Assembly: GCA_043745805.1 (NCBI GenBank)
Contig: JAYTSD010000017.1
Location: 96,001 to 160,000, forward strand
DNA: 64,000 nucleotides
Reading direction: 5' to 3'
From: Fibrobacteria bacterium
Lineage (GTDB): Bacteria; Fibrobacterota; Fibrobacteria; UBA11236
Position 1 is the first letter of the stretch. The number at the start of each line of letters is the position of its first letter. A program made the translations under genes and the position numbers. Shown here in pieces: positions 21,809 to 33,384 of the stretch. The notes under the pieces were generated by a model that ran no database searches, was not told the DNA's origin, and saw nothing but the letters and a program-made list of their open reading frames with translations.

Positions 21809-21838
21809 AGGGTGAGGCTTTTGCTTCACCCTTTTTTT
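21809..21838 (+). terminator. Rho-independent terminator
   Basis: AGGGTGAGGC-TTTT-GCTTCACCC stem followed by a T7 run. Confidence 0.9.
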
Positions 21839-22207
21839 GTCAAATTTTTACCTTAGATTTTGACATTAGCGGGACAAATTTTCCCAAAAAACATGGATTC
21901 CATAGATAGAGATAAAGAAAGGAATTAGCTTTTCTCATCGATCATTTTTAAAATAGCATTGGGGAATGTGATACAAAATATCCATTATAATCATCTAAAC
22001 TTTGAAGAACGCTTGCTAAGCCCAAATTTGGGGTTTGGTTTAAAGTTGATATCGATATTAAAAAATCATTGCAAATCCATTGCAAATCAAGGTTTATTAA
22101 AAATTTCAGGAGTATTAAGCCCATGGTTGTCCAACCCTTGGTTTTACCAAATTCAAAGGGACTTAAATTCGGTTCTAACAACAAAATCGACTTCTGTGTC
22201 CAGCTCC

Positions 22208-22708
22208 ATGGTAATGGAAACGGAAAGTCCAAATACTCTTTCTTTGGAAGAGTTGTACAAAAAATACAGTGCTGCGCTTTATTGGGTTTGTTCTCGCTAT
22301 ACACGCAATCGCGAAGATGCTGAGGACATGGTTCATCAAGTTTTTATGAAGGTTCATCTCAATCGCCATCAATTTCAGGGTGGCAGTAGTATTTATACTT
22401 GGATTTATCGCATTGCGGTCAATGAATGCTTGCAAATGCTACGCAAGAAAAAATTTGAAAAAGAGGGAGAATTATTTCCTGGTTTAGAAAATAAGTTGGT
22501 TTATTTTCCTGAACGAACTATGGATGCCAAATTAATTTTGGAAAAAATCACTAAAACGGTTGATATTAAAACTATGGAAATATTATTTCTGCTTTATCTC
22601 GAAGATCATAAACAAGAAGATGTTGCAGAAATGTTGAATATTTCGCGTGCCACGGTTAATCGTAAAATTGCCCACTTTAAAATTTTAATGACACGCTTCA
22701 AATGGTAA
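22208..22708 (+). CDS. ECF RNA polymerase sigma-70 factor
   Basis: Region 2 EDAEDMVHQVF...TWIYRIAVNECL; region 4 QEDVAEMLNISRATVNRKI; start set at ATG 22208 rather than TTG 21959. Confidence 0.92.
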   Translation: MVMETESPNTLSLEELYKKYSAALYWVCSRYTRNREDAEDMVHQVFMKVHLNRHQFQGGSSIYTWIYRIAVNECLQMLRKKKFEKEGELFPGLENKLVYFPERTMDAKLILEKITKTVDIKTMEILFLLYLEDHKQEDVAEMLNISRATVNRKIAHFKILMTRFKW

Positions 22709-23553
22709 GGCCAACTCTCGAATCCGGAAGTGCAGAGATGCCCTCCGAAAAAAACATTCATCCTTCTAGGCTTATTTTAACAAACTTTCTCAATGGGGAT
22801 TTAAACTCTGAGCAACAAAAGGAATTTAATCACCATGTGCTTGGTTGTCTTCAATGCTCACAAATCATATCTGAGGCGCGACAAGTAACCTCCGAGTTCA
22901 CTCAAAAATTTCCAACTTTTGCTTCTCTAGATAGCAAATTTGGAATAAAATATTCATCCCGCTTAAGACCAACCTTTGTAGAAAGGCTGAAGGGGTTATG
23001 GCAAATTTTTGAAAGTAATATTTGCTATGCCATTTCGCCAAAAATCGCGTGGGCCCTTGTGTTGTTTTTTGTTGTAGGCGTAACTTGGATATTCAATTTA
23101 AAGTCTTTAAATACACAAGGTCAATCTTATAAAGGGCAAACTCGCTTCACACTTTTTCGAAACGGACATCAAGTATTGAAAGATACTTTTTTTGCCGAAC
23201 CACTGGATACCTTACAATTAATAATTACTAGTCCTGAACCCGTTTATTATGCAGTGCTATATCAAGATGATACTGCCGCTTTAGAAATTTATTTGCCCGA
23301 GCTGGGAAAAGAAAATTTATCACTGGGTAATGCCCATGGCGAACCCTTGCCGCATAGTTTGATTTTAGATGCAAGTTGGAAAAACGAAATTTTATATTGC
23401 TTATGGGGAAGCAAACCGATTTCCTTGTCTGAAATGACTTTAAATAAACTTTCAAATAGGATAATTAAAATTGATCCAAAAGATTTACGCAATTGGATGG
23501 ACAAGAAAAATATTCACTATCAAGTTTATTACTTAAATAATAGTTTACCATGA
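22702..23553 (+). CDS. Zinc-binding (ZAS/zf-HC2-like) transmembrane anti-sigma factor with extracytoplasmic beta-sandwich (DUF4384-like) domain
   Basis: HVLGCLQC (HxxxCxxC), single TM IAWALVLFFVVGVTWIFNL, overlaps ECF stop. Confidence 0.75.
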   Translation: MVRPTLESGSAEMPSEKNIHPSRLILTNFLNGDLNSEQQKEFNHHVLGCLQCSQIISEARQVTSEFTQKFPTFASLDSKFGIKYSSRLRPTFVERLKGLWQIFESNICYAISPKIAWALVLFFVVGVTWIFNLKSLNTQGQSYKGQTRFTLFRNGHQVLKDTFFAEPLDTLQLIITSPEPVYYAVLYQDDTAALEIYLPELGKENLSLGNAHGEPLPHSLILDASWKNEILYCLWGSKPISLSEMTLNKLSNRIIKIDPKDLRNWMDKKNIHYQVYYLNNSLP

Positions 23554-25130
23554 AATGGCCACACTATAAATTATTGCTGGCTTTGCTTTTTTGTTTTCAT
23601 CCCAGTTATGCATTAATAAAAATGGCCTTGGTAATAGGTAATAATACCGGAATGGATGATGAAAAGCCCTTGCAGTATGCCACGCGCGATGCCAAGCAAA
23701 TTTATGAGACCTTAGGTCAATTAGGAGGAATGGATAAAGGCAAAAGCTATTTATTGTTAGATTTATCCGTTGCCAAAGTAATGACGGCATTACGTGAGGC
23801 CAGTAATCGCATACAAACTTTGCATAAAGAAAAACAAAAAGTACAGCTGCTGATATATTTTTCGGGTCATGGCAGTGAGGATGCTTTGCATTTAAATGGT
23901 GAGAAATTGCCCATTGCACAAATCCGTGAATATTTTACCAGTATGGACGCGGATTTAAAAATTTTAATTGCGGATGCTTGTTATAGTGGGTCATTAATTC
24001 AAGCCAAAGGGGCTAAATTAGGGGCGGTCATTCCCGTTAAATACTCTGATGAATTAAAGGTAAATGGATCTGCTATTTTAACGTCTAGTTCCGCAGGAGA
24101 ATTGTCACAGGAATCTCAAGATTTTCACGGTTCAATTTTTACGCATTATTTTTTAACTGCCATGCGTGGAGCGGCGGATTTTGATCGCGATGGACAAATT
24201 ACTTTATGGGAAGCCTATAACTATACGCAATTGAATCTTCGACGAAAATCTATGACAAATAAAGGTTTTGTACAAAATCCAGGATTCGATATTGATGTAA
24301 ATGGTTCGGATAATGTGATTTTGACACACTTAGATTTAGGTCAAGCTCTGCTAAGTTTCAAGGGCTTTACCGAGGGGCAATATCAGATTTTAGAAGCGAA
24401 TAGCACATTGCAAGTTGCCGAAATAGATTTATCAGGTGGGGAAGGGGTAACTTTAGCATTACCTAAAGCCAATTATTTAGTGTATCGCTCTTCTCAAGGT
24501 AAGGCTTGGGCGGTATGGGCGGATTTGCGGCAAAACAAAATTACAGAAATAAATCCGTCCCTGTTATATCCGATTTCCATGGGCGCTTTAGCCGCAAAAG
24601 GCGGCGATGGAGGCTTAGAAGCTAAAGGCTTGCTAATACCTAGAGAAATAAACTCTTATCACTTAGCCTTGCATTCACGTTTATACCCTTATTTTCCAGG
24701 GCGAAAAGAAACGGCAACGAGTTGGATGCTATCTGCCGAGAGTCAATGGGAAACATGGAGTTTTTTACTCTCAGGAAGTTTTTTACCCACCTTACAAACT
24801 TTAGTAAAGGGTAACCGTTTTACTCAAACTGGATATAGTATTGGCGGAGAATTACGCTATTATTTTTATCCTACGCATAATAGTACTTGGCATTTGGGAC
24901 CGCATTGGGAAAGCTGGTTTTTGCAACAAAATTTAAATGGAAAAACCCTTGGCCAAGGAAATTTACTTGGCACTATGGGAAGCTTGGGTGCAGACTGGAT
25001 AATATTTCATCGATTCACTCTTGGCTTTAACTGGGAGCCTGGTATTTTTTTGCATTATGATAAGGCTGCTATATTACAAAAAGATTTCGCATCTCCAATT
25101 TCAATAGGCGTAACAATGGGTTTATGGTAA
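23550..25130 (+). CDS. Exported caspase-family (peptidase C14) protease with C-terminal probable outer-membrane beta-barrel
   Basis: Signal peptide; ALVIGNN, YFSGHG (His107), IADACYSG (Cys144), GAADFDRDGQIT; amphipathic beta-strand C-terminus ending in Trp. Confidence 0.88.
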   Translation: MKWPHYKLLLALLFCFHPSYALIKMALVIGNNTGMDDEKPLQYATRDAKQIYETLGQLGGMDKGKSYLLLDLSVAKVMTALREASNRIQTLHKEKQKVQLLIYFSGHGSEDALHLNGEKLPIAQIREYFTSMDADLKILIADACYSGSLIQAKGAKLGAVIPVKYSDELKVNGSAILTSSSAGELSQESQDFHGSIFTHYFLTAMRGAADFDRDGQITLWEAYNYTQLNLRRKSMTNKGFVQNPGFDIDVNGSDNVILTHLDLGQALLSFKGFTEGQYQILEANSTLQVAEIDLSGGEGVTLALPKANYLVYRSSQGKAWAVWADLRQNKITEINPSLLYPISMGALAAKGGDGGLEAKGLLIPREINSYHLALHSRLYPYFPGRKETATSWMLSAESQWETWSFLLSGSFLPTLQTLVKGNRFTQTGYSIGGELRYYFYPTHNSTWHLGPHWESWFLQQNLNGKTLGQGNLLGTMGSLGADWIIFHRFTLGFNWEPGIFLHYDKAAILQKDFASPISIGVTMGLW

Positions 25131-27064
25131 TCGCAACCAAGAGCATTAGGTTTCCGTTACTTATAGGTTACTTTTACCTATTAATCACCGGTATTTTTGT
25201 GTGTTCTTGTCTAAAAGAGAATCCAGTAATTTTACCGGAAACAATTTATGATGCCAAAACTTTTTTGCCGCTCGATTCACTTTATCGTTTTGATTCCGTG
25301 ACCATTACCATAATGAATGAAAAGGATATTACGCAACATAAAACTATATGGTTAGCTCCGGTTAAATATTCCTCAGAATTTCCGGTATTCATTTCTGGAG
25401 AACAAGAAAATCTATATCTCGATATTAAAGGTTATAAAAAAATTAAAGGATCATTGCCTTGCTACAAAGCAACAAGTAAACAGGGTAATTATTGGGTAAA
25501 TATTGATACATGTGATATTATTAACAGTATTTTGATTATCGATTCCATAGCATGGTCCGATTCCATTGTAGATTTTGATAGCCTAGATACAGAAAAAAAA
25601 ATCATATTTAATTTAGTTGGAAATAAAATTCATTCCTTAAACCTGACTCCGACTTCGAATTACCTACTCTTATTACCACCCTTTCAATTGGATTCTAATC
25701 ATAAACAAATAGAAATTCGTATTAAAATTATCCGTGATAGTTTGAGCAAGAGCTTGTATTCTACGGCTTATTCCATTACAGATAATGGCCTTAAGGTGGG
25801 GGAAATAAAAATCAAATTCAAAGTTGCAGAAAAGCTACCAGTCATAATATCTCACAAGGACAGTTCAGTAGTAAAATTGAAGGTACTTAATAAAATAGAT
25901 TCACTTCCGGTGTCAGGTGCTAAAATAAATCTGGATGGTAAAGATTTATTGGCGTTAACGGATTTAACGGGAAAAATAAAATTAGATTCGCTGGCCCTTG
26001 GTCAGCATAAGTTTTTTGTCACAATAGCAGATAGATTGGGAATTATTGATTCGATGAATATCACATACTTTGATACTGTGGTTTCATTCTATTTACCTCC
26101 TAAAACCGTATTGCAGAATTTAGCGGTGGGATGGAGCGCACCTAGTTTAGCGAACTTTACAACTTTTCAAAATCAGGCCATCTTTTTAAGTCAAGATATT
26201 CAAAGTTCGGGATTAGTTTTGAAATTTCCACTTAACAATTTGGACCCGCGACTACAAAGCACGATCGAACAAGGAAATAAAACTTTAGCAAATCCACCTG
26301 AAATTTTTGATGCCATTAATTCTGTTGCGGATGCCACTAATCTTTATATTACTTATCCAGATGTAAATAGAATTGGAAAAATAAGTGATTGGCAGAATAC
26401 TAGTGCGGCGAGCAACACCTTACTTGCATTTTCACCTTACGGTTTATTATTGGAAGGAAATAGTCTTTTTAGTATTGGACGTAATCAAAAAGAACAATTG
26501 ACACTAGCGGAATTCAATACAACCGATTTTTCCATTATTAAAATGGATACACTAGGTAACTTTAAATGGGATGAATTAGATATTTCTAATCGTGGACCTA
26601 AAATGGTCTCAACTCCAGATGCGTTTTATGTGGTCGATGGAAATGGACCACAGCAAATTGGGAATCTTATTAAGGTCAGCAAAACTTCACGGAATATTCT
26701 TGTTAGTCAACAAACAAAATCCGCACAAATTTCCGATATTTGTATTTATAAGGACCGAATTTATATCACTTCTCATGGTTCAAGTATTGTGGAAATTTAC
26801 GATTTTAATTTAGTGCCCAGTGGAATAATCAATATTGGAAAATCAGTAGAAAAAATTTCCATTGTGCAGAGTGGCTATTTGCAGGGGACCGGATTTTTGA
26901 CCACCAATGATAATTCAGTGCAGGTGATAAATACAGAAGCTAAATTAGTTATTGGCTCTTTAAGCTTACCCGTTGGGGAGCGATCCAAAAACATTATTTT
27001 CAATGCGGCCATAGCAAAATTAATCGTCACAACGGTTAATAAAATTTATATCGCAGAATTTTAG
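25124..27064 (+). CDS. Putative lipoprotein with carboxypeptidase-regulatory-like Ig domain and C-terminal beta-propeller
   Basis: Hydrophobic leader ending FVCSC; PVSGAKINLDG...TDLTG Ig motif; repeated short beta-strand blades. Confidence 0.65.
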   Translation: MVIATKSIRFPLLIGYFYLLITGIFVCSCLKENPVILPETIYDAKTFLPLDSLYRFDSVTITIMNEKDITQHKTIWLAPVKYSSEFPVFISGEQENLYLDIKGYKKIKGSLPCYKATSKQGNYWVNIDTCDIINSILIIDSIAWSDSIVDFDSLDTEKKIIFNLVGNKIHSLNLTPTSNYLLLLPPFQLDSNHKQIEIRIKIIRDSLSKSLYSTAYSITDNGLKVGEIKIKFKVAEKLPVIISHKDSSVVKLKVLNKIDSLPVSGAKINLDGKDLLALTDLTGKIKLDSLALGQHKFFVTIADRLGIIDSMNITYFDTVVSFYLPPKTVLQNLAVGWSAPSLANFTTFQNQAIFLSQDIQSSGLVLKFPLNNLDPRLQSTIEQGNKTLANPPEIFDAINSVADATNLYITYPDVNRIGKISDWQNTSAASNTLLAFSPYGLLLEGNSLFSIGRNQKEQLTLAEFNTTDFSIIKMDTLGNFKWDELDISNRGPKMVSTPDAFYVVDGNGPQQIGNLIKVSKTSRNILVSQQTKSAQISDICIYKDRIYITSHGSSIVEIYDFNLVPSGIINIGKSVEKISIVQSGYLQGTGFLTTNDNSVQVINTEAKLVIGSLSLPVGERSKNIIFNAAIAKLIVTTVNKIYIAEF

Positions 27065-27108
27065 CAGAGAATATTTTCAAATCATTTTAAAAATAATGAG
27101 GGTTTTTT

Positions 27109-30100
27109 ATGGTAAAAATGCCGGTTGGTTTTTTTTCTAAGGCTTTATCGAAGATCGTTTTCATAAGCGTGATTACACACTGTGCATCGATATATGCGCA
27201 AGAGTTTATAGTACTAAAAGACAATATTCGTAGTTTACAAGATCGTTCTTATAACTCGGCTGAAGTGGGAGAAATGAAAGGGCAAGTATCCTTTTTAGAT
27301 TTCAATTCCGATGGAAATAAAGATTTAGTGTTTTCGGGAAATTGTTGGCCTTCACCTGGGTGCATAGAATTATATCAAAATACAAATGGTGTATTTTCTA
27401 ACACCCATGCCTTTGATAGTCTCGAAAATTATCATTTGCAGGCCGGCGCTTGGGCAGATATTAACCATGATGGTAGCTTAGATTTTGTGACCTATGAGGA
27501 AAGAAATAATATTCGCTTGGCAAAATTTTATACTTACAATGTAACACAAAAAAAAATATTGCCTTTGAATATAAGTTTACCCACGGGTAAATGGACAAAT
27601 TTAAGCTTTAGTTTTTGTGACATTGACAATGATAGCTTTCCTGATTTACTAGTGAGTGGTCTGGTAGATTCTTCGCTTTTTTGGCCGCCATTCACTGAAG
27701 TTTATCATAATGAAAATGGCAAAAGTTTTAAAAGTATGAATATGGGCTTGTTACCTATGTGGAATGCGAATATGGCTTGGGCCGATTTTGATAAGGATGG
27801 ATATTCCGATTTATATATCACCGGAAACACAGGGGTTAAAAATTTTTCTGCGATTTATCCTACCTCCATGGCCACAAGGGTTTATCGTAATAATATCGGC
27901 AAATTAAATTTATACGCAACCTTGCCCAGTTTGGTTTATGGAGGTGCGGCGTGGGGAGATTATGATGGCGATGGAAAATTAGATTTAGTCGTTTCTGGAA
28001 CCCGTATGCCAGGCAATACTCTTCCTGCAACGCTTTTATATAAAAACAATGGTACGGGTTTTGATCTGCAAACGAATACGCCCTTTGATTCCTTATGCTT
28101 TGGATCGGTTTCTTTTGCGGATATGGACAAGGATGGTGATCCCGATCTTTTGTTAACCGGAGAAATTTCCGAAAGTGCACCGCTCACCAAAATCTTTCGC
28201 AATGATAAAAGTGTGTTTGTAGATATGCAATCCAATTTACCTTCCCTCACTCATGGTGTTTCATCGTGGGGCGATTTTGATGGGGACGGAAATATGGATA
28301 TCTTTTTAAGCGGAATAAATGCCAATAAAGAATCCAGCGCACATTTATTTCATAATATTCGTGGTGATTTTGAGCCCTTAAATAGTTTTTCCTCACCTAT
28401 TATTGCCTCAACACTACATTGGATAGATTATGATAATGATAAAAAGTTAGACTTTTTTATTAGCGATAATTCTGAAAGCAAGCTTTATCGGAATATCGGT
28501 AATGGGCAATTTTTAGCAGAGAATACAAATCTTCCTATAGGTTCTACGCAATCCGATTTAGGTGATTTTGATAATGATGGTAAAGTTGATATTGTGATGG
28601 TTGGCACAAACACTGCTACAAATGATGCCGTAACTATTCTTCAAAATAAAGGGGATGGAAATTTTTTAGATACCAAAATAAAAATTTTAGGCACAACTAA
28701 TCCGGGGCTTATAACCATTGACGGCGCTAAATGGGGGGATTATGATAATGATGGAAAATTGGATTTGGTGGTTTGGGGACATGATTATAAAATTGGAAAT
28801 AACCCTTTTACTAAAGTTTTTCATAATGAGGGGGACTGGACTTTTTCTGAATTAACAAAAATTTTTACCGGCATTACTCGCGGTCAAATTTCATGGGGTG
28901 ATTTTAATCGAGATGGTCGATTAGATTTAGCCTTAGCAGGGGATAGTCTTGAGAGCTCTTATACTCCCTTTGTTAAAATTTATCGTAATGAAAATGGAGT
29001 ATTAAATACCACTAATGATAATATTAGTCCATTATCGCATACTTCTTTTGCATGGGGTGATTTTGATAATGATGGGGATCTTGATTTTGCCCTTTCTGGA
29101 GAATACCGTGTAGGATCAGCTTTTGATTCAACCATAACCCGTATTTTTAGGAATAATGGAGGGGTTTTTGAACAATTTGGACAAAGTTTGATCGGTGTTT
29201 TTAATGGCCAAATCTTATGGATAGATGCGGATAATGATGGTGATCTAGATCTAATTATGAATGGGGGTTATCTAGATTCTCCTTATAAAAATGCCCGAAT
29301 TCTACGCAATGAAGGAAATCGTTTTACTGCAATTCCTCCGGTTTTCCCGAATTATTCCCCAACAGTTATGGATGTGGGTGATTTTGATGGCGATGGAAAA
29401 GTTGATTTACTGGTTTCGGGATCAAGTTGGAGTGTTCCCTCAGGAACTTTTATTTATAAAAACACAGTACTCACAGCTAATACTTTGCCTTCAGTTCCCC
29501 CAAATGCCAATGCGACTTTAGGTTTTTCGTCCGTTACTTTAGCCTGGGATAATTCCACCGATAACGAAACTTCTTCTTCCGGTTTGCAGTATAATGTGCA
29601 AGTCGGTAAAGCGAGCGGAGGGTTTGAAATATTATCGAGTGCGTCCCATTCCGATGGAATTCTCAGGGCCAATCAAATGGGTAATGCTTCACATGCAAAT
29701 TTTAAAAATCTTATTGGACTTGCTCCAGGAAAATATTTTTGGAAAGTACAAGCCATAGATAATGCCTTAGGAGGCTCTTCATTTTCGCCGGAAGGGAAGT
29801 TTACCATTGGCATTACTACACCAACTTTGTTGGAAACCGGTGCAGGTAATTCACAAGTGACTTTGAAATGGAAGAAATTGACTGATTCTAATTTCCAGAG
29901 ATATTATCTCTATTACGGCTTAATCACTAATCCTAGCAATAAAATGGATTCTGTATCACTCGCTAATGATACGGTTAAAGTTATTTCGGAATTACAAAAT
30001 GGACAGCTTTATTATTTTCGAGTTTCAGCTATTGATCAAGGGGGAAATCCTAGTGGTTACTCTAATGAATTAACTGCCATACCCGATGGAACGCCTCCCG

Positions 30101-32634
30101 CTATTCCCAGTGGATTGGTCGCAGTGGGTAATGATCGAACGGTTACTTTAAGCTGGAAAGCCAATACCGAAAATGATTTTCTCTGCTATTTCATTTATCA
30201 GCGAGCGTCCAATGGAGCATTATTCCTTATTGATTCTATTGCGAATATTAATCAAGTTTCAAAAACAGTTACGGGATTAAAAAATGGATCGGCTTATGCT
30301 TTTGTAATGTCTGCGGCGGATAAAGTTTTAAATCATAGTGGATTCTCCCAAGAGGTTCTAGCTTCTCCCTTTTATTTAGTGAGTAGCTCATTGAATAATT
30401 TAAACTTTGGAAAAACTCATATTAGTATTTATAAAGATTCGGTATTAATGCTTAATAATTCGAGTTCCTTGCCTGTAACCTTAGATTCAATAGTAATTTC
30501 AAATAGTAATTTTGCTATAACTAGTCCAATAAAGCTGATTCCTGCTAGTGGGCAGCTAATTTTGTCTATAAGGTTCAATTGTCTTCAGTCAATGGGAGGT
30601 GATTTTAATTCTACGTTAAAAATTTATTTTGGAAATTCTACCATCGAAATATCTTTATTGGCAAAAGCTGTGGCTAATCCGTATAGTACAATTGAACAGG
30701 CAAATCCCTCACCTGCAATATGGGATACTACATCCAATATTGCTTTTTTAGCGAGTGCCGATGATTCGGATATTGCTGGCACTGGGGATAAAATTGCATC
30801 CTATTTATGGTCCTCGAATCTTAATGGTATTTTACCAAGTACTAAAAACAGTTTTTTAATACACCCGTCGGGGTTCAAAATCGGTAATCACAAAATCTCT
30901 TTAAGGGTTGTGGATAATGATGGGGATACCTCAGCGATAGTGGAAAAACTTTTAACGATTAAGGGGCGAAAACCTTTTGCCAAAATCGATTCTATAACTC
31001 CCAAGAACCTTATCCTCCGAGGATCAGATAAACCTCATTTTTCATTTACCTCGTATGACCTCGATGAATTAGCAAATTCGGATCATGATAGTTTAGTTAA
31101 TTTTGGAATTTACTCCACTTTACAAGGCAAAATTAGCAGTAATAAAGATACTACCTTGGATTCCATCTCTCTGCAATTAGGTTTACATGGTTTTTATGCA
31201 CGTGCCATTGATAATGAAGGGGATACGGTATTTTCAGATACCCAATGGATTCCTGTTCAAACAGGGGTGGGATTAGCAGTATTAGTTGCGGGCTCACCTT
31301 TTGGTGATTATCGATACCTTTTTGAAAATATCTCCCCCAATTGTAATTGGGCTTATGCCAAATTACGTGAACGAGGATTTACCGATGAATTAATTCAATA
31401 TTTTAATCCAGTGGGTTGGCAAAGTATTGGCGATTCTTTTAGCAATAGTGGTATTGTAGACGTTACCGATATGACGGTAAAAAATTTACGCAAAGCTATA
31501 TTGGATTTGAAGCCTAAGGTTGAAAATGGTGTGCCTTTACTTATATCCTTTTTGGGTCATGGGACCAACAATACTCAATTAGGTAAGTTTTATTTAACTC
31601 CTACTGAGTTTATTACTCCTGATACTTTGAATGCTTGGTTAAATACTTTTACCATTTCTAAATCCATGAATTCTCCTATAGTTATATTATTAGACTTTTG
31701 TTATGCGGGTACTTTTCTCAATAAGTTAAAATCATCTACGCAAAATCGTATTGTAATAGCTTCAGCAGCAGCGGATAGAGTGGCTTATTTTGATGGGGGC
31801 CGATCATTTAGCTATAATATTTTTAAGCAAATTTCCAAAGGCAATAATTTGGCTCAAGCATGGAATACAGCCAATATTTGGTCTGCAAATCTTGGACAAA
31901 ATGCAAGCATCTCATCTAATCCCCAAATGAATGCGAATAGTGATAATAATTACAATGATCTATTAGATATAAATGTATTACAAAACATTTATGTTGGAGG
32001 TAGCCAACAAAATCAGGACTTGGAATCGGAATGGAAAAGTATAGATGGAAGTTATGACAATTTAAAGAATTTGATTTCTTTTAAAGTGATTCCTAAAAAT
32101 TTATCCAAAATAGATAAAGTATGGTACTCCATTTTGACACCCGATTTTGATCCTGCTAATCCCCTTATGCAATCTTTGCACTCCGAAGATATGGCGGTGC
32201 AGGATAGTGGTTTTGTGGGTACTTACACGCTCAAGCCAAATCAAAATGGCGAATTTTTAATCACAGCATATGGATCGGTGGGAGGAAAACAAATTTTACC
32301 TATTTCAAAATCAATTTATACGCTCACCACAGGTATTGGAAATGATTCTGCTTCTAAAATATTTAGTTTAAAACAAAACTTTCCAAATCCCTTCAAAAAC
32401 TTTACCACCATCCCTTTTAATTTAATGCATCAGGGAAATGTGAAATTAATTATTCAAAATTTAAAAGGCGAGAGGGTTAAATCCTTGATTAACACTCATG
32501 TTAACCAAGGAACGCATTTTGTGACTTGGAATGGGTTAAATGAAAACGGCTTCCAAATGCCTGCTGGTCTATATATCTATACTTTAATTGCACCCGATGG
32601 CATTTTGCGAAAGAAGTTTAATCTTCAGAGATAA
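27109..32634 (+). CDS. Large secreted protein: 14 FG-GAP/VCBS repeats, FN3/Ig domains, clan-CD (C13-like) peptidase domain, T9SS/FlgD-like C-terminal domain
   Basis: 14 DxDxDG-type repeats; FN3-like VTLxW...YFRVSAID; ISFLGHG (His1484) and ILLDFCYAG (Cys1531); LKQNFPNPF...VTWNG...AGLYIYTL. Confidence 0.85.
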   Translation: MVKMPVGFFSKALSKIVFISVITHCASIYAQEFIVLKDNIRSLQDRSYNSAEVGEMKGQVSFLDFNSDGNKDLVFSGNCWPSPGCIELYQNTNGVFSNTHAFDSLENYHLQAGAWADINHDGSLDFVTYEERNNIRLAKFYTYNVTQKKILPLNISLPTGKWTNLSFSFCDIDNDSFPDLLVSGLVDSSLFWPPFTEVYHNENGKSFKSMNMGLLPMWNANMAWADFDKDGYSDLYITGNTGVKNFSAIYPTSMATRVYRNNIGKLNLYATLPSLVYGGAAWGDYDGDGKLDLVVSGTRMPGNTLPATLLYKNNGTGFDLQTNTPFDSLCFGSVSFADMDKDGDPDLLLTGEISESAPLTKIFRNDKSVFVDMQSNLPSLTHGVSSWGDFDGDGNMDIFLSGINANKESSAHLFHNIRGDFEPLNSFSSPIIASTLHWIDYDNDKKLDFFISDNSESKLYRNIGNGQFLAENTNLPIGSTQSDLGDFDNDGKVDIVMVGTNTATNDAVTILQNKGDGNFLDTKIKILGTTNPGLITIDGAKWGDYDNDGKLDLVVWGHDYKIGNNPFTKVFHNEGDWTFSELTKIFTGITRGQISWGDFNRDGRLDLALAGDSLESSYTPFVKIYRNENGVLNTTNDNISPLSHTSFAWGDFDNDGDLDFALSGEYRVGSAFDSTITRIFRNNGGVFEQFGQSLIGVFNGQILWIDADNDGDLDLIMNGGYLDSPYKNARILRNEGNRFTAIPPVFPNYSPTVMDVGDFDGDGKVDLLVSGSSWSVPSGTFIYKNTVLTANTLPSVPPNANATLGFSSVTLAWDNSTDNETSSSGLQYNVQVGKASGGFEILSSASHSDGILRANQMGNASHANFKNLIGLAPGKYFWKVQAIDNALGGSSFSPEGKFTIGITTPTLLETGAGNSQVTLKWKKLTDSNFQRYYLYYGLITNPSNKMDSVSLANDTVKVISELQNGQLYYFRVSAIDQGGNPSGYSNELTAIPDGTPPAIPSGLVAVGNDRTVTLSWKANTENDFLCYFIYQRASNGALFLIDSIANINQVSKTVTGLKNGSAYAFVMSAADKVLNHSGFSQEVLASPFYLVSSSLNNLNFGKTHISIYKDSVLMLNNSSSLPVTLDSIVISNSNFAITSPIKLIPASGQLILSIRFNCLQSMGGDFNSTLKIYFGNSTIEISLLAKAVANPYSTIEQANPSPAIWDTTSNIAFLASADDSDIAGTGDKIASYLWSSNLNGILPSTKNSFLIHPSGFKIGNHKISLRVVDNDGDTSAIVEKLLTIKGRKPFAKIDSITPKNLILRGSDKPHFSFTSYDLDELANSDHDSLVNFGIYSTLQGKISSNKDTTLDSISLQLGLHGFYARAIDNEGDTVFSDTQWIPVQTGVGLAVLVAGSPFGDYRYLFENISPNCNWAYAKLRERGFTDELIQYFNPVGWQSIGDSFSNSGIVDVTDMTVKNLRKAILDLKPKVENGVPLLISFLGHGTNNTQLGKFYLTPTEFITPDTLNAWLNTFTISKSMNSPIVILLDFCYAGTFLNKLKSSTQNRIVIASAAADRVAYFDGGRSFSYNIFKQISKGNNLAQAWNTANIWSANLGQNASISSNPQMNANSDNNYNDLLDINVLQNIYVGGSQQNQDLESEWKSIDGSYDNLKNLISFKVIPKNLSKIDKVWYSILTPDFDPANPLMQSLHSEDMAVQDSGFVGTYTLKPNQNGEFLITAYGSVGGKQILPISKSIYTLTTGIGNDSASKIFSLKQNFPNPFKNFTTIPFNLMHQGNVKLIIQNLKGERVKSLINTHVNQGTHFVTWNGLNENGFQMPAGLYIYTLIAPDGILRKKFNLQR

Positions 32635-32648
32635 GTAAAAAATACTGA

Positions 32649-32680
32649 TTTTTTTTCCCGAGTGGAATCAGGAAAAAAAT
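32649..32680. terminator. Probable bidirectional terminator between convergent genes
   Basis: TTTTTTTCC...GGAAAAAAA inverted repeat. Confidence 0.5.
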
Positions 32681-32682
32681 AT

Positions 32683-33384
32683 TTATTTCACTATTTCAAA
32701 TTCCATGCGATAAATTGGTTTGCCAAGAAGTCGATATTTTTTTTCAAAATTAGTTTGAATACCTTCGGTAGGCTCTGCATTTCCATTAATCACTTTCAGC
32801 CAAGGCAATGAATTAAATAATTCCAAACTATCGGCGTGATACTCGGCATGATCGGTACCCCAATAAAATTTTCCATTGGGAATGGTTACTCTTTTAACTT
32901 GTTCTAAAAAAGCGACATTAGCTAAGCGATGCTTGCGCTGTCTTTTCTTAGGCCATGGATCAGGAAAATACATATGTACGGCCTGCGTACAGGAATCCGG
33001 TAAAAAATCGCGTAAGAAAAAAAAAGCATCGCCGAGTAATAAGCGTGCATGAGGGAGATGTGGTCTTTTTGCAATACGTGTGGCGGCAAAAAAAGCGATC
33101 TCGGCTTCTTTTTCTATTCCAATTATGGGTAACTCCGGATGTCTCTCGGCATACTCCACCATGAAACCGCCTTTACCACAGCCAACTTCAATTTCAATTA
33201 AGCCCTCTTTAGCAAAAAAATTGTGGAAATTAATAGGAGTAAATTCTGGCTTTCCACTTTCTGTAAGTACTGGTAAATTTTTGGCATCTTTTTTATGCCT
33301 AAGATGGTAATATTTTTCCAAGTCATTGGAGGGTAACAATTCACGCTGCAATTCATAAGAACTCAGCCCTTCCGGTAAAGCCAT
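32683..33384 (-). CDS. trmB: tRNA (guanine-N7)-methyltransferase
   Basis: IEVGCGKG, YFPDPWPKKRQRKHRL, GTDH, TNFEKK. Confidence 0.94.
   Translation of the reverse strand: MALPEGLSSYELQRELLPSNDLEKYYHLRHKKDAKNLPVLTESGKPEFTPINFHNFFAKEGLIEIEVGCGKGGFMVEYAERHPELPIIGIEKEAEIAFFAATRIAKRPHLPHARLLLGDAFFFLRDFLPDSCTQAVHMYFPDPWPKKRQRKHRLANVAFLEQVKRVTIPNGKFYWGTDHAEYHADSLELFNSLPWLKVINGNAEPTEGIQTNFEKKYRLLGKPIYRMEFEIVK

Follow-up and report, generated by a model that had tools for sequence, protein, structure and literature searches.

Which task does an exported caspase-like protease perform when its gene follows those of a sigma factor and an anti-sigma factor? This question is raised by a gene cluster in a 64,000-nucleotide stretch of DNA from a Fibrobacteria bacterium (GenBank assembly GCA_043745805.1, contig JAYTSD010000017.1, positions 96,001 to 160,000), which we call the window. 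Five genes on the same strand encode a sigma factor of the extracytoplasmic function (ECF) group, a single-pass anti-sigma factor, an exported metacaspase-like protease (hereafter the caspase), a lipoprotein and a giant secreted protein (Table 1). What bacterial homologs of metacaspases and orthocaspases do in the physiology of the cell has long been a question. A first-pass annotation of the window had proposed a trans-envelope cascade in which the caspase and the giant protein both process the anti-sigma factor. Our comparison points instead to the first three genes as a widespread unit in which the caspase could act as a dedicated protease. Such a family would offer a concrete answer to the metacaspase question: a site-1 protease for an ECF anti-sigma factor, with a predicted cut site.

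Of the 201 genomes sampled from the phylum, 146 hold matches to the caspase family, a tally which takes in one genome flagged as unpublished (G194); nothing else reported here depends on that genome. Forty Fibrobacterota loci were compared. The first twenty surround the best caspase matches in the phylum, including two chosen from other genera, and the second twenty are lower-ranked matches hand-picked across families. Together with the window, a paralogous locus of the same genome (L001) and one locus from Myxococcota (L072), they form a set of 43 loci.

In the first twenty loci, the sigma and caspase genes are always adjacent and co-oriented, and a single-sequence search recovers the anti-sigma gene in 16. 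Three of the four remaining loci harbor an open reading frame (ORF) of 262-333 amino acids in the gap, which aligns over the anti-sigma periplasmic domain. All three genes are present in 18 loci of the second set. Overall, the order sigma, anti-sigma, caspase is kept in 38 of the 40 Fibrobacterota loci, with genes which overlap or nearly abut, and a profile of 21 positional anti-sigma homologs (alignment A1) detects the anti-sigma factor in 41 of the 43 caspase loci. The same genes stand in the same order in L072, a locus from a metagenome-assembled genome (MAG) of Archangiaceae which was reached from a single Myxococcota homolog (P0066). Comparison of the loci thus supports the view that the sigma factor, the anti-sigma factor and the exported caspase are functionally coupled, as the first-pass annotation had suggested from one locus.

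The paralogous locus (L001, G000:C44:27000-44000) lies on the minus strand, from 10267 down to 1304. It encodes an ECF sigma factor, an anti-sigma factor (DUF4384 at 2.8e-4), a 691-residue caspase, two paralogous lipoproteins and a 748-residue Por_Secre_tail protein. The caspase of this locus has a repeat-rich middle part, and a ThuA-like protein is also encoded there. Up to seven caspase matches per genome are seen in relatives from genus g3. Genome G146 holds three close copies of the unit (C219, C346 and C8), only one of which is seen beside a giant-protein gene; the contig of the C346 copy ends before the giant-gene position. Locus L051 (G102:C1:2743000-2759000) has no separate anti-sigma ORF between sigma factor and caspase. 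There, the stop-to-stop frame of the caspase spans 1078 amino acids and the anti-sigma profile still scores 72 bits; a fusion or a frame problem is possible.

Sigma factor, protease and anti-sigma factor

The sigma factor matches Sigma70_r2 (4.9e-16, 58.7 bits, cut-off 24), r4_2 (9.2e-7, 28.9 bits, cut-off 25.7) and TIGR02937 (80 bits, cut-off 42.9). It contains only the sigma-2 and sigma-4 regions, which defines it as a member of the ECF group (group 4). The ORF is open from 21959, and this start was rejected for the one at 22208 according to the N-terminus of the paralog in L001.

The caspase scores well above the cut-off of the Peptidase_C14 model (5.8e-17; 62.6 against 21.4 bits), and model, fold and catalytic dyad agree in placing it in family C14. 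His107 and Cys144 are invariant in an alignment of 71 homologs (A2), and the His/Cys dyad is present in all 43 loci. On these points the first-pass annotation, which had read an ECF sigma factor, an exported caspase and this very dyad from the letters, proves right. The closest solved proteins by sequence are metacaspases (AtMC4 at 1.3e-6). The D-x-C-x-S-G motif of the caspase and an Asp align with the metacaspase N-D motif, D47 and D142 being located at the N-D and D-x-C positions.

The AlphaFold2 (AF2) model of the caspase has a predicted local distance difference test (pLDDT) score of 90.6. In it, the C14 domain (residues 22-250, with H107 and C144) is followed by an Ig-like sandwich (257-342); a disordered linker (349-364) then leads to a C-terminal barrel (369-524), whose strands reach pLDDT values above 90. 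Foldseek relates the C14 and Ig parts to MALT1 caspase-Ig3, metacaspases, caspases and legumain, and the barrel to the eight-stranded OmpA and NspA with template modelling (TM) scores to target of 0.64-0.69 (best matches: OmpA 9fzc_A, 0.69; NspA 1p4t, 0.68). As an antiparallel C-terminal barrel with an aromatic last residue, here a Trp, this part is predicted to be of the OmpA-like eight-stranded type. To our knowledge, all known outer-membrane proteins of this kind have both barrel ends in the periplasm. Because of the barrel fold at the C-terminus and this known topology, the protease domain should hang in the periplasm, tethered to the outer membrane by its own barrel. An outer-membrane anchor had been proposed before; the location is supported by the AF2 model and by Foldseek, with a C-terminal β-barrel in place of a lipid anchor.

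Residues 210-221 of the caspase (window positions 24177-24212) form an EF-hand-like loop of twelve residues, D-x-D-x-D-G-x-I-T-x-x-E. Positions 1, 5 and 12 of the loop are invariant in the 71-sequence alignment, and the pattern is matched in 24 of the 43 loci. This sequence hints at calcium control as in metacaspases.

The anti-sigma factor comprises an N-terminal domain with an HxxxCxxC motif, one hydrophobic helix near residue 115 and a periplasmic part of about 150 residues, and its gene overlaps the sigma gene. The motif-bearing domain and the adjoining sigma gene together identify it, by sequence, as a class I anti-sigma factor of the zinc type (ZAS). Searched against solved structures, the A1 profile finds the RslA anti-sigma factor weakly (3hug_B, E 0.0019), and DdvA, RsiW and ChrR stay above E 0.3. 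In a library of 1.84 billion proteins, the profile recovers 10,525 cluster representatives at E of 0.001 or below and 3,940 representatives of 50%-identity clusters at E of 1e-10 or below. In one library protein of 758 amino acids (P0191), the anti-sigma periplasmic domain occurs five times in tandem; it is therefore also a repeat module outside anti-sigma factors.

A Lys-Gly pair is shared by protease and anti-sigma factor. In the anti-sigma factor, the pair follows shortly after the membrane helix; among the 21 aligned sequences, G145 is invariant and K144 is kept by at least 90%. In the caspase, K153 (at least 90% of the 71 homologs) and G154 (invariant) follow nine residues after the catalytic C144, where the one low-confidence loop of the caspase domain (154-166) begins. 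In caspases and metacaspases, the autoprocessing linker occupies this post-Cys loop position. Metacaspases and orthocaspases cleave after Arg or Lys. The same specificity is stated in PMC6426788; here and below, what is said of cited papers refers to excerpts of these sources.

Furthermore, the three residues preceding Lys-Gly co-vary between the two proteins. Cognate pairs were compared with shuffled partners in 39 usable pairs from the 43 loci. The cognate pairs sum to 118 by BLOSUM; shuffled pairs average 10.7 (standard deviation 21.3), and none of 20,000 shuffles reaches the cognate sum; identities amount to 31/117 against a shuffle mean of 18.9, a value reached by 10 of 20,000 shuffles. 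When one pair is kept per distinct caspase motif (n = 24), the cognate value is reached by 1 of 20,000 shuffles for BLOSUM and by 240 of 20,000 for identity. In some clades an Arg is found two residues before the Lys in both proteins, in others an aromatic residue precedes the Lys in both, and at one locus the two partners share an identical stretch of six residues. A complex prediction for caspase residues 22-348 and anti-sigma residues 136-283, entered as alignments, gave a score of 0.02 (mark 0.32), which is evidence neither way.

A proposed envelope switch and its alternatives

We propose that the three genes form an envelope switch in which the caspase serves the anti-sigma factor as a site-1 protease of its own and RseP follows. 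The ECF sigma factor would be kept at the inner membrane by the single-pass zinc-type anti-sigma factor, whose periplasmic side would be a DUF4384-like domain placed after the Lys-Gly motif just outside the membrane helix. The caspase would reside in the periplasm, connected by a flexible linker to its own eight-stranded barrel in the outer membrane. Upon an envelope signal, the caspase would cut the anti-sigma factor at or near Lys-Gly; its own post-Cys Lys-Gly loop would probably be an autoprocessing or autoinhibitory site. The remaining anti-sigma stub would be cleared by an RseP-type site-2 protease (the genome encodes an RseP-like M50 protease), and the freed sigma factor would transcribe its own operon. 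In the lineage of the window, this operon would be extended by the lipoprotein and by the giant FG-GAP/legumain-like surface protein exported through the type IX secretion system (T9SS).

We favor the site-1 protease reading because of the metacaspase affinities of the caspase, the predicted periplasmic topology of both partners, the Lys-Gly co-variation, the RseP-type protease and the precedents of the Craspase and DdvA systems, and we give it about an even chance. Cleavage of the anti-sigma factor by the caspase was already part of the first-pass annotation and is plausible in view of the co-varying motif; the part which that annotation gave to the giant protein is not retained.

Several points weigh against the switch as proposed. 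Our searches found no cleavage, binding or expression data for any member of the three-gene family. The anti-sigma factor of the window itself matches no Pfam model, including zf-HC2 and DUF4384, the latter not even at E of 10 or below. DUF4384 (PF14326) is found in 4 of the 21 relatives, at best with 2.8e-4 and 21.3 bits, below the cut-off of 27. The two domains named in the first-pass annotation thus go unmatched in the window protein and surface only among its relatives, zf-HC2 being matched by 8 of 21 (best 4.8e-10). As for the motif, the partners encoded in the window agree only at Lys-Gly itself, the caspase having an Ala just before the pair and the anti-sigma factor a Tyr; four of the 43 loci yielded no motif pair, and the shuffle test ignores the kinship of the loci and so overstates significance. 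The geometry may be limiting as well, as a domain tethered to the outer membrane would have to get to a site which lies 10-25 residues from the inner membrane. The candidate promoter ahead of the sigma gene (CCAAAT-N16-TCGG) is unspecific, with 69 matches in the genome against 23 for a reversed control, and autoregulation and a regulon are for this reason unproven. Finally, two caspases of the family (L055 and L058) stand alone, with divergent neighbours and neither sigma nor anti-sigma factor; the protease can therefore exist outside the switch.

These stand-alone proteins fit an alternative in which the caspase is the output of the system, serving quality control, remodelling or self-destruction, and the anti-sigma factor is degraded by DegS, Prc or RseP-type proteases. 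ECF operons often carry their targets, metacaspases are linked to cell death in excerpts of reviews, and the lack of binding and cleavage evidence for the caspase on the anti-sigma factor suits this alternative too. However, a gene order fixed in 38 of 40 loci and found again in Myxococcota is tighter than typical linkage of a regulator to its target, and the co-variation around Lys-Gly is left unexplained. We regard a pure output role as unlikely.

A more elaborate version of the site-1 reading makes the caspase a sensor of reach. Here, the tethered metacaspase would meet the anti-sigma motif only when envelope geometry or the state of the outer membrane changes, calcium at the EF-hand-like loop would perhaps be needed in roughly half of the family, and the Lys-Gly loop of the caspase would be an autoinhibitory decoy for the anti-sigma site. 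Free-standing units of sigma factor, DUF4384 anti-sigma factor and caspase would, in addition, be the source of the type III-E Csx29/Csx30/RpoE module. Taken jointly, these claims are rather improbable; if true, bacterial metacaspases would act primarily in signalling and not in cell death.

The wiring might also run in reverse. The Lys-Gly and DUF4384-like part of the anti-sigma factor would then be a pseudo-substrate or docking site which keeps the outer-membrane protease inactive or in position, and loss of contact, for instance upon damage to the envelope, would be the signal; the freed protease would act on other substrates while other proteases remove the anti-sigma factor. The same co-variation fits such an arrangement, DUF4384 is often fused to protease domains according to Kato et al. 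(bioRxiv 10.1101/2022.08.17.504292), and in cell-surface signalling an outer-membrane partner shields the anti-sigma factor from proteolysis (PMC11637429). Yet a cleavage site would account at least equally well for the conserved catalytic dyad and for a motif located beside the membrane helix, the present data not separating the two, and we hold reverse wiring to be distinctly unlikely.

Accessory genes and setting of the cluster

Beyond the three-gene unit, conservation fades. The first-pass annotation had named conservation of the neighbourhood as a check, which holds for the first three genes and fails for the last two.

The lipoprotein matches no Pfam or NCBIfam family, and a search for homologous proteins returned only the query itself. 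Its Cys, followed by L-x-[DE]-x-P, is conserved among orthologs; signal peptides and the lipobox were assigned by eye and by this Cys conservation. Weak Atlas leads point to Ig-like or NHL-propeller proteins (scores 0.77-0.84, all below 0.9). Homologs occur in 6 of the first 20 loci, only the six closest. A lipoprotein of some kind, judged by the lipobox pattern, follows the caspase in 11 of the 40 loci and starts in ten of them at most 30 nt from the caspase stop. An accessory lipoprotein is therefore frequent and not fixed.

The giant protein contains FG-GAP_3 (2.1e-65, in 10 stretches), fn3 (4.8e-12) and FlgD_ig (1.6e-8) matches. The AF2 model of residues 1380-1760 (pLDDT 81) shows a legumain-like domain and then an Ig-like domain. 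Foldseek places plant and human legumains on top for the clan-CD domain (E 4e-10, TM score to target about 0.6), and H1484 and C1531, named as a dyad in the first-pass annotation, are each retained by at least 90% of the sequences in an alignment of 20. Membership in Peptidase C13, which that annotation had considered, was rejected: the scores of 16.1 and 18.7 bits stay below the cut-off of 22.8. Despite the fold, the domain is therefore named legumain-like clan CD and not a C13 member. At the C-terminus, FlgD_ig lies above its cut-off (34.8 against 27 bits), whereas TIGR04183 (21.5 against 23) and Por_Secre_tail (19 against 27) lie below theirs. As to the T9SS, the genome holds SprA (SprA_N at 110 bits) and 42 Por_Secre_tail matches, none of which is the giant protein. 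From these sequence matches, the giant protein is probably exported by the T9SS to the outside of the outer membrane. On the same contig, about 25 kb upstream of the window, a weak Por_Secre_tail match (G000:C17:70546-70779) ends a 6712-residue open frame, which by its sequence reads as another giant T9SS-type protein.

Full-length homologs of the giant protein are found in two of the first 20 loci (L032 and L037), both with the five-gene order. The homolog is missing in L033, L034 and L036, and L035 is cut by a contig end. The five-gene form recurs, but only in a sublineage, and in many loci the caspase gene is not followed by a co-oriented gene. All 14 full-length orthologs come from Fibrobacterota where the source is named; eight of them are on contigs equal in size to those of caspase orthologs and presumably identical with them. 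Three library proteins (P0135-P0137) carry the legumain-like domain, the Ig-like domain and the sorting tail at 39-41% identity behind unrelated N-terminal parts, which are pectate-lyase-like, Chlamydia-PMP-like or made of choice-of-anchor D repeats. Their sequences suggest that this cassette is a generic, reusable module of surface proteins.

The cascade of two proteases, in which a giant FG-GAP/clan-CD surface sensor and the caspase together process the anti-sigma factor and fire the sigma factor, can draw on two clan-CD folds with conserved His and Cys, on the recurrent five-gene order, on the eight contigs presumably shared with caspase orthologs and on the second clan-CD (C25-type) peptidase which ends the ddvS operon of Myxococcus xanthus (PMC11506125), but it is highly improbable, since the giant protein is missing even within the closest group, the switch would work without it as most loci end at the caspase, the probable T9SS tail puts it outside and away from the periplasmic anti-sigma domain, and the same cassette sits on unrelated N-terminal parts. 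That the giant protein generates or captures the signal at the surface we likewise consider very far from probable. Lipoprotein and giant protein would rather be lineage-specific, co-expressed output or accessory genes outside the relay. An operon extended by exported output genes fits better because the paralogous locus on C44 also ends in a different T9SS cargo. As a candidate output, the giant surface protein could be a clue to what the switch responds to in this lineage.

As read in the first-pass annotation, the first four genes overlap; the overlaps measure 7, 4 (ATGA) and 7 nt, and 44 nt separate the fourth gene from the fifth. The upstream terminator of that annotation is found again by the terminator scan. 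At its second terminator, near 32650, there is only an AT-rich hairpin (2 of 200 shuffles fold equally well), and the terminator scan of the window made no call at that place. The putative promoter is the sole match to its pattern in the window. It recurs ahead of the sigma genes of L033, L036 and L037; in a word count over 21 upstream regions it is found in four loci, and shuffles also reach a maximum of four. The pattern is a weak lead only. A leader of 375 nt separates the upstream terminator from the sigma start. It contains 2.5 tandem copies of an 11-bp unit (22063-22088), which may be a binding site for another regulator.

Housekeeping genes flank the cluster: RecO and a class I Glu/Gln tRNA-synthetase-like gene upstream, and a convergent TrmB-like methyltransferase gene downstream, whose end lies at 32683. 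The genome comprises 3.95 Mb in 50 contigs with about 38% GC, the window being C17:96001-160000 in our numbering. Its closest protein relatives are MAGs named Fibrobacteria or Fibrobacterota, and the stretch is present in four DNA runs from one sediment-metagenome study, with no RNA run listed for it.

Table 1. Coordinates of the cluster and its features in the window
Feature	Position	Strand	Details
Intrinsic terminator of the preceding housekeeping gene, upstream cluster boundary	21809..21832	+	10-pair stem, 6 GC pairs, T-run
Weak candidate ECF-type promoter, CCAAAT-N16-TCGG	22147..22172	+	36 nt ahead of sigma start
ECF (group 4) sigma factor, 166 aa	22208..22708	+	Start at ATG 22208
Single-pass anti-sigma factor, 283 aa	22702..23553	+	HxxxCxxC at residues 45-52, helix ~115-133, Lys144-Gly145, DUF4384-like periplasmic domain
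Exported metacaspase-like protease, 526 aa	23550..25130	+	Signal peptide, C14, Ig-like, linker, predicted 8-stranded OmpA-like barrel
Lipoprotein of no known family, 646 aa	25124..27064	+	Translationally coupled to caspase gene; conserved lipobox Cys
Giant secreted protein, 1841 aa	27109..32634	+	Signal peptide, FG-GAP/VCBS, fn3, legumain-like clan-CD, Ig-like, probable T9SS tail
Legumain-like clan-CD domain of giant protein, residues ~1389-1624	31273..31980	+	H1484, C1531
Probable T9SS type A C-terminal sorting domain, residues 1758-1841	32380..32631	+	FlgD_ig above cut-off
AT-rich hairpin between convergent genes, possible bidirectional terminator	32650..32679	.	z-score -2.49

Comparison with known systems

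Regulated intramembrane proteolysis of class I anti-sigma factors is known from RpoE-RseA with DegS and RseP and from SigW-RsiW with PrsW. A review of the subject is available (PMC10202637). The switch proposed here would share with them an ECF sigma factor, a single-pass anti-sigma factor, a site-1 cut outside the membrane and an M50 site-2 protease. In those systems the site-1 enzyme is a serine or metalloprotease of the inner membrane, whereas the candidate here is an operon-encoded clan-CD cysteine protease tethered to the outer membrane. If true, the regulated proteolysis of anti-sigma factors would gain a further class of protease and, with the outer-membrane tether, a new geometry. The Dma system is also an ECF system of the Fibrobacteres-Chlorobi-Bacteroidetes (FCB) group which bridges inner and outer membranes through a barrel; unlike in our case, the Dma barrel is part of the anti-sigma factor itself and not of a separate protease.

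The association of sigma and metacaspase genes is already in print. Asplund-Samuelsson et al. (2012, PMC3501461) describe operons which combine metacaspase genes with sigma-70-type factors; among their carriers are Myxococcus xanthus, with 4 of its 5 metacaspases, and Anaeromyxobacter, Haliangium, Sorangium, Ralstonia and Fibrobacter. Their excerpt gives the co-occurrence only and speaks of no anti-sigma factor, barrel tether, topology, motif or mechanism; the lipoprotein and the giant protein do not belong to the association described there. Our literature searches found no characterised ECF/anti-sigma/caspase system, and in the main text of Casas-Pastor 2021 caspase, C14, peptidase, Fibrobacter and DUF4384 do not occur, though its supplements may catalogue this ECF group. 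The first-pass annotation, which took the arrangement to be uncharacterised, was right in this respect; the co-occurrence itself was published in 2012.

In the ECF54 group (PMC8999054), proteases of the gene context, including CHAT-domain proteins, are proposed to control the sigma factor, as we propose for the neighbouring caspase. According to the excerpt, ECF54 has no anti-sigma factor; here, an anti-sigma factor is clear and the protease is a C14 protein with a barrel.

Closer in architecture is DdvS/DdvA of Myxococcus xanthus (PMC11506125). The periplasmic CHAT domain of DdvA is proposed to be its own site-1 protease, and RseP was shown to degrade the truncated anti-sigma factor; the ddvS operon also encodes, downstream, a protein of no known kind besides its second clan-CD peptidase. 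Both systems thus combine a zinc-type anti-sigma factor with a caspase-family His-Cys protease on the periplasmic side. In DdvA, however, the TPR-CHAT part is fused to the anti-sigma factor and would act in trans within a dimer, and the periplasmic part spans about 900 residues. The window encodes a 283-residue anti-sigma factor with a small DUF4384-like domain, and its protease is a separate C14-type protein, predicted to be anchored in the outer membrane by its barrel; the cluster is not of the DdvA type.

A last comparison concerns type III-E Craspase, in which Csx29 cleaves Csx30 and frees an ECF sigma factor (bioRxiv 10.1101/2022.08.17.504292; for the system see also PMC10028731). The Craspase set (TPR-CHAT protein Csx29, Csx30, Csx31 and RpoE) and the present unit both comprise a caspase-family protease, an anti-sigma-like protein and an ECF sigma factor. 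The analogy had been drawn in the first-pass annotation and gains a concrete link, as one group of Csx30 C-terminal domains is DUF4384 (Kato et al., same preprint), the family which the anti-sigma periplasmic domain resembles. Craspase is cytoplasmic, RNA-guided, CRISPR-linked and based on a CHAT protease, whereas our unit would be periplasmic, has no CRISPR and encodes a C14 metacaspase-like protease. The cluster fits neither a type III-E Craspase nor a catalogued defence system, and no defence island is nearby. A reading as a defence system was rejected, given weak PADLOC matches only (a generic caspase at 6e-5 and a CasR-like helix-turn-helix at 4.6e-4) and the housekeeping flanks.

Among these systems, the cluster described here represents an extended, lineage-specific form within a very large three-gene family. 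If the caspase of this family is indeed the site-1 protease, the family would link anti-sigma proteolysis to the Craspase and DdvA systems.

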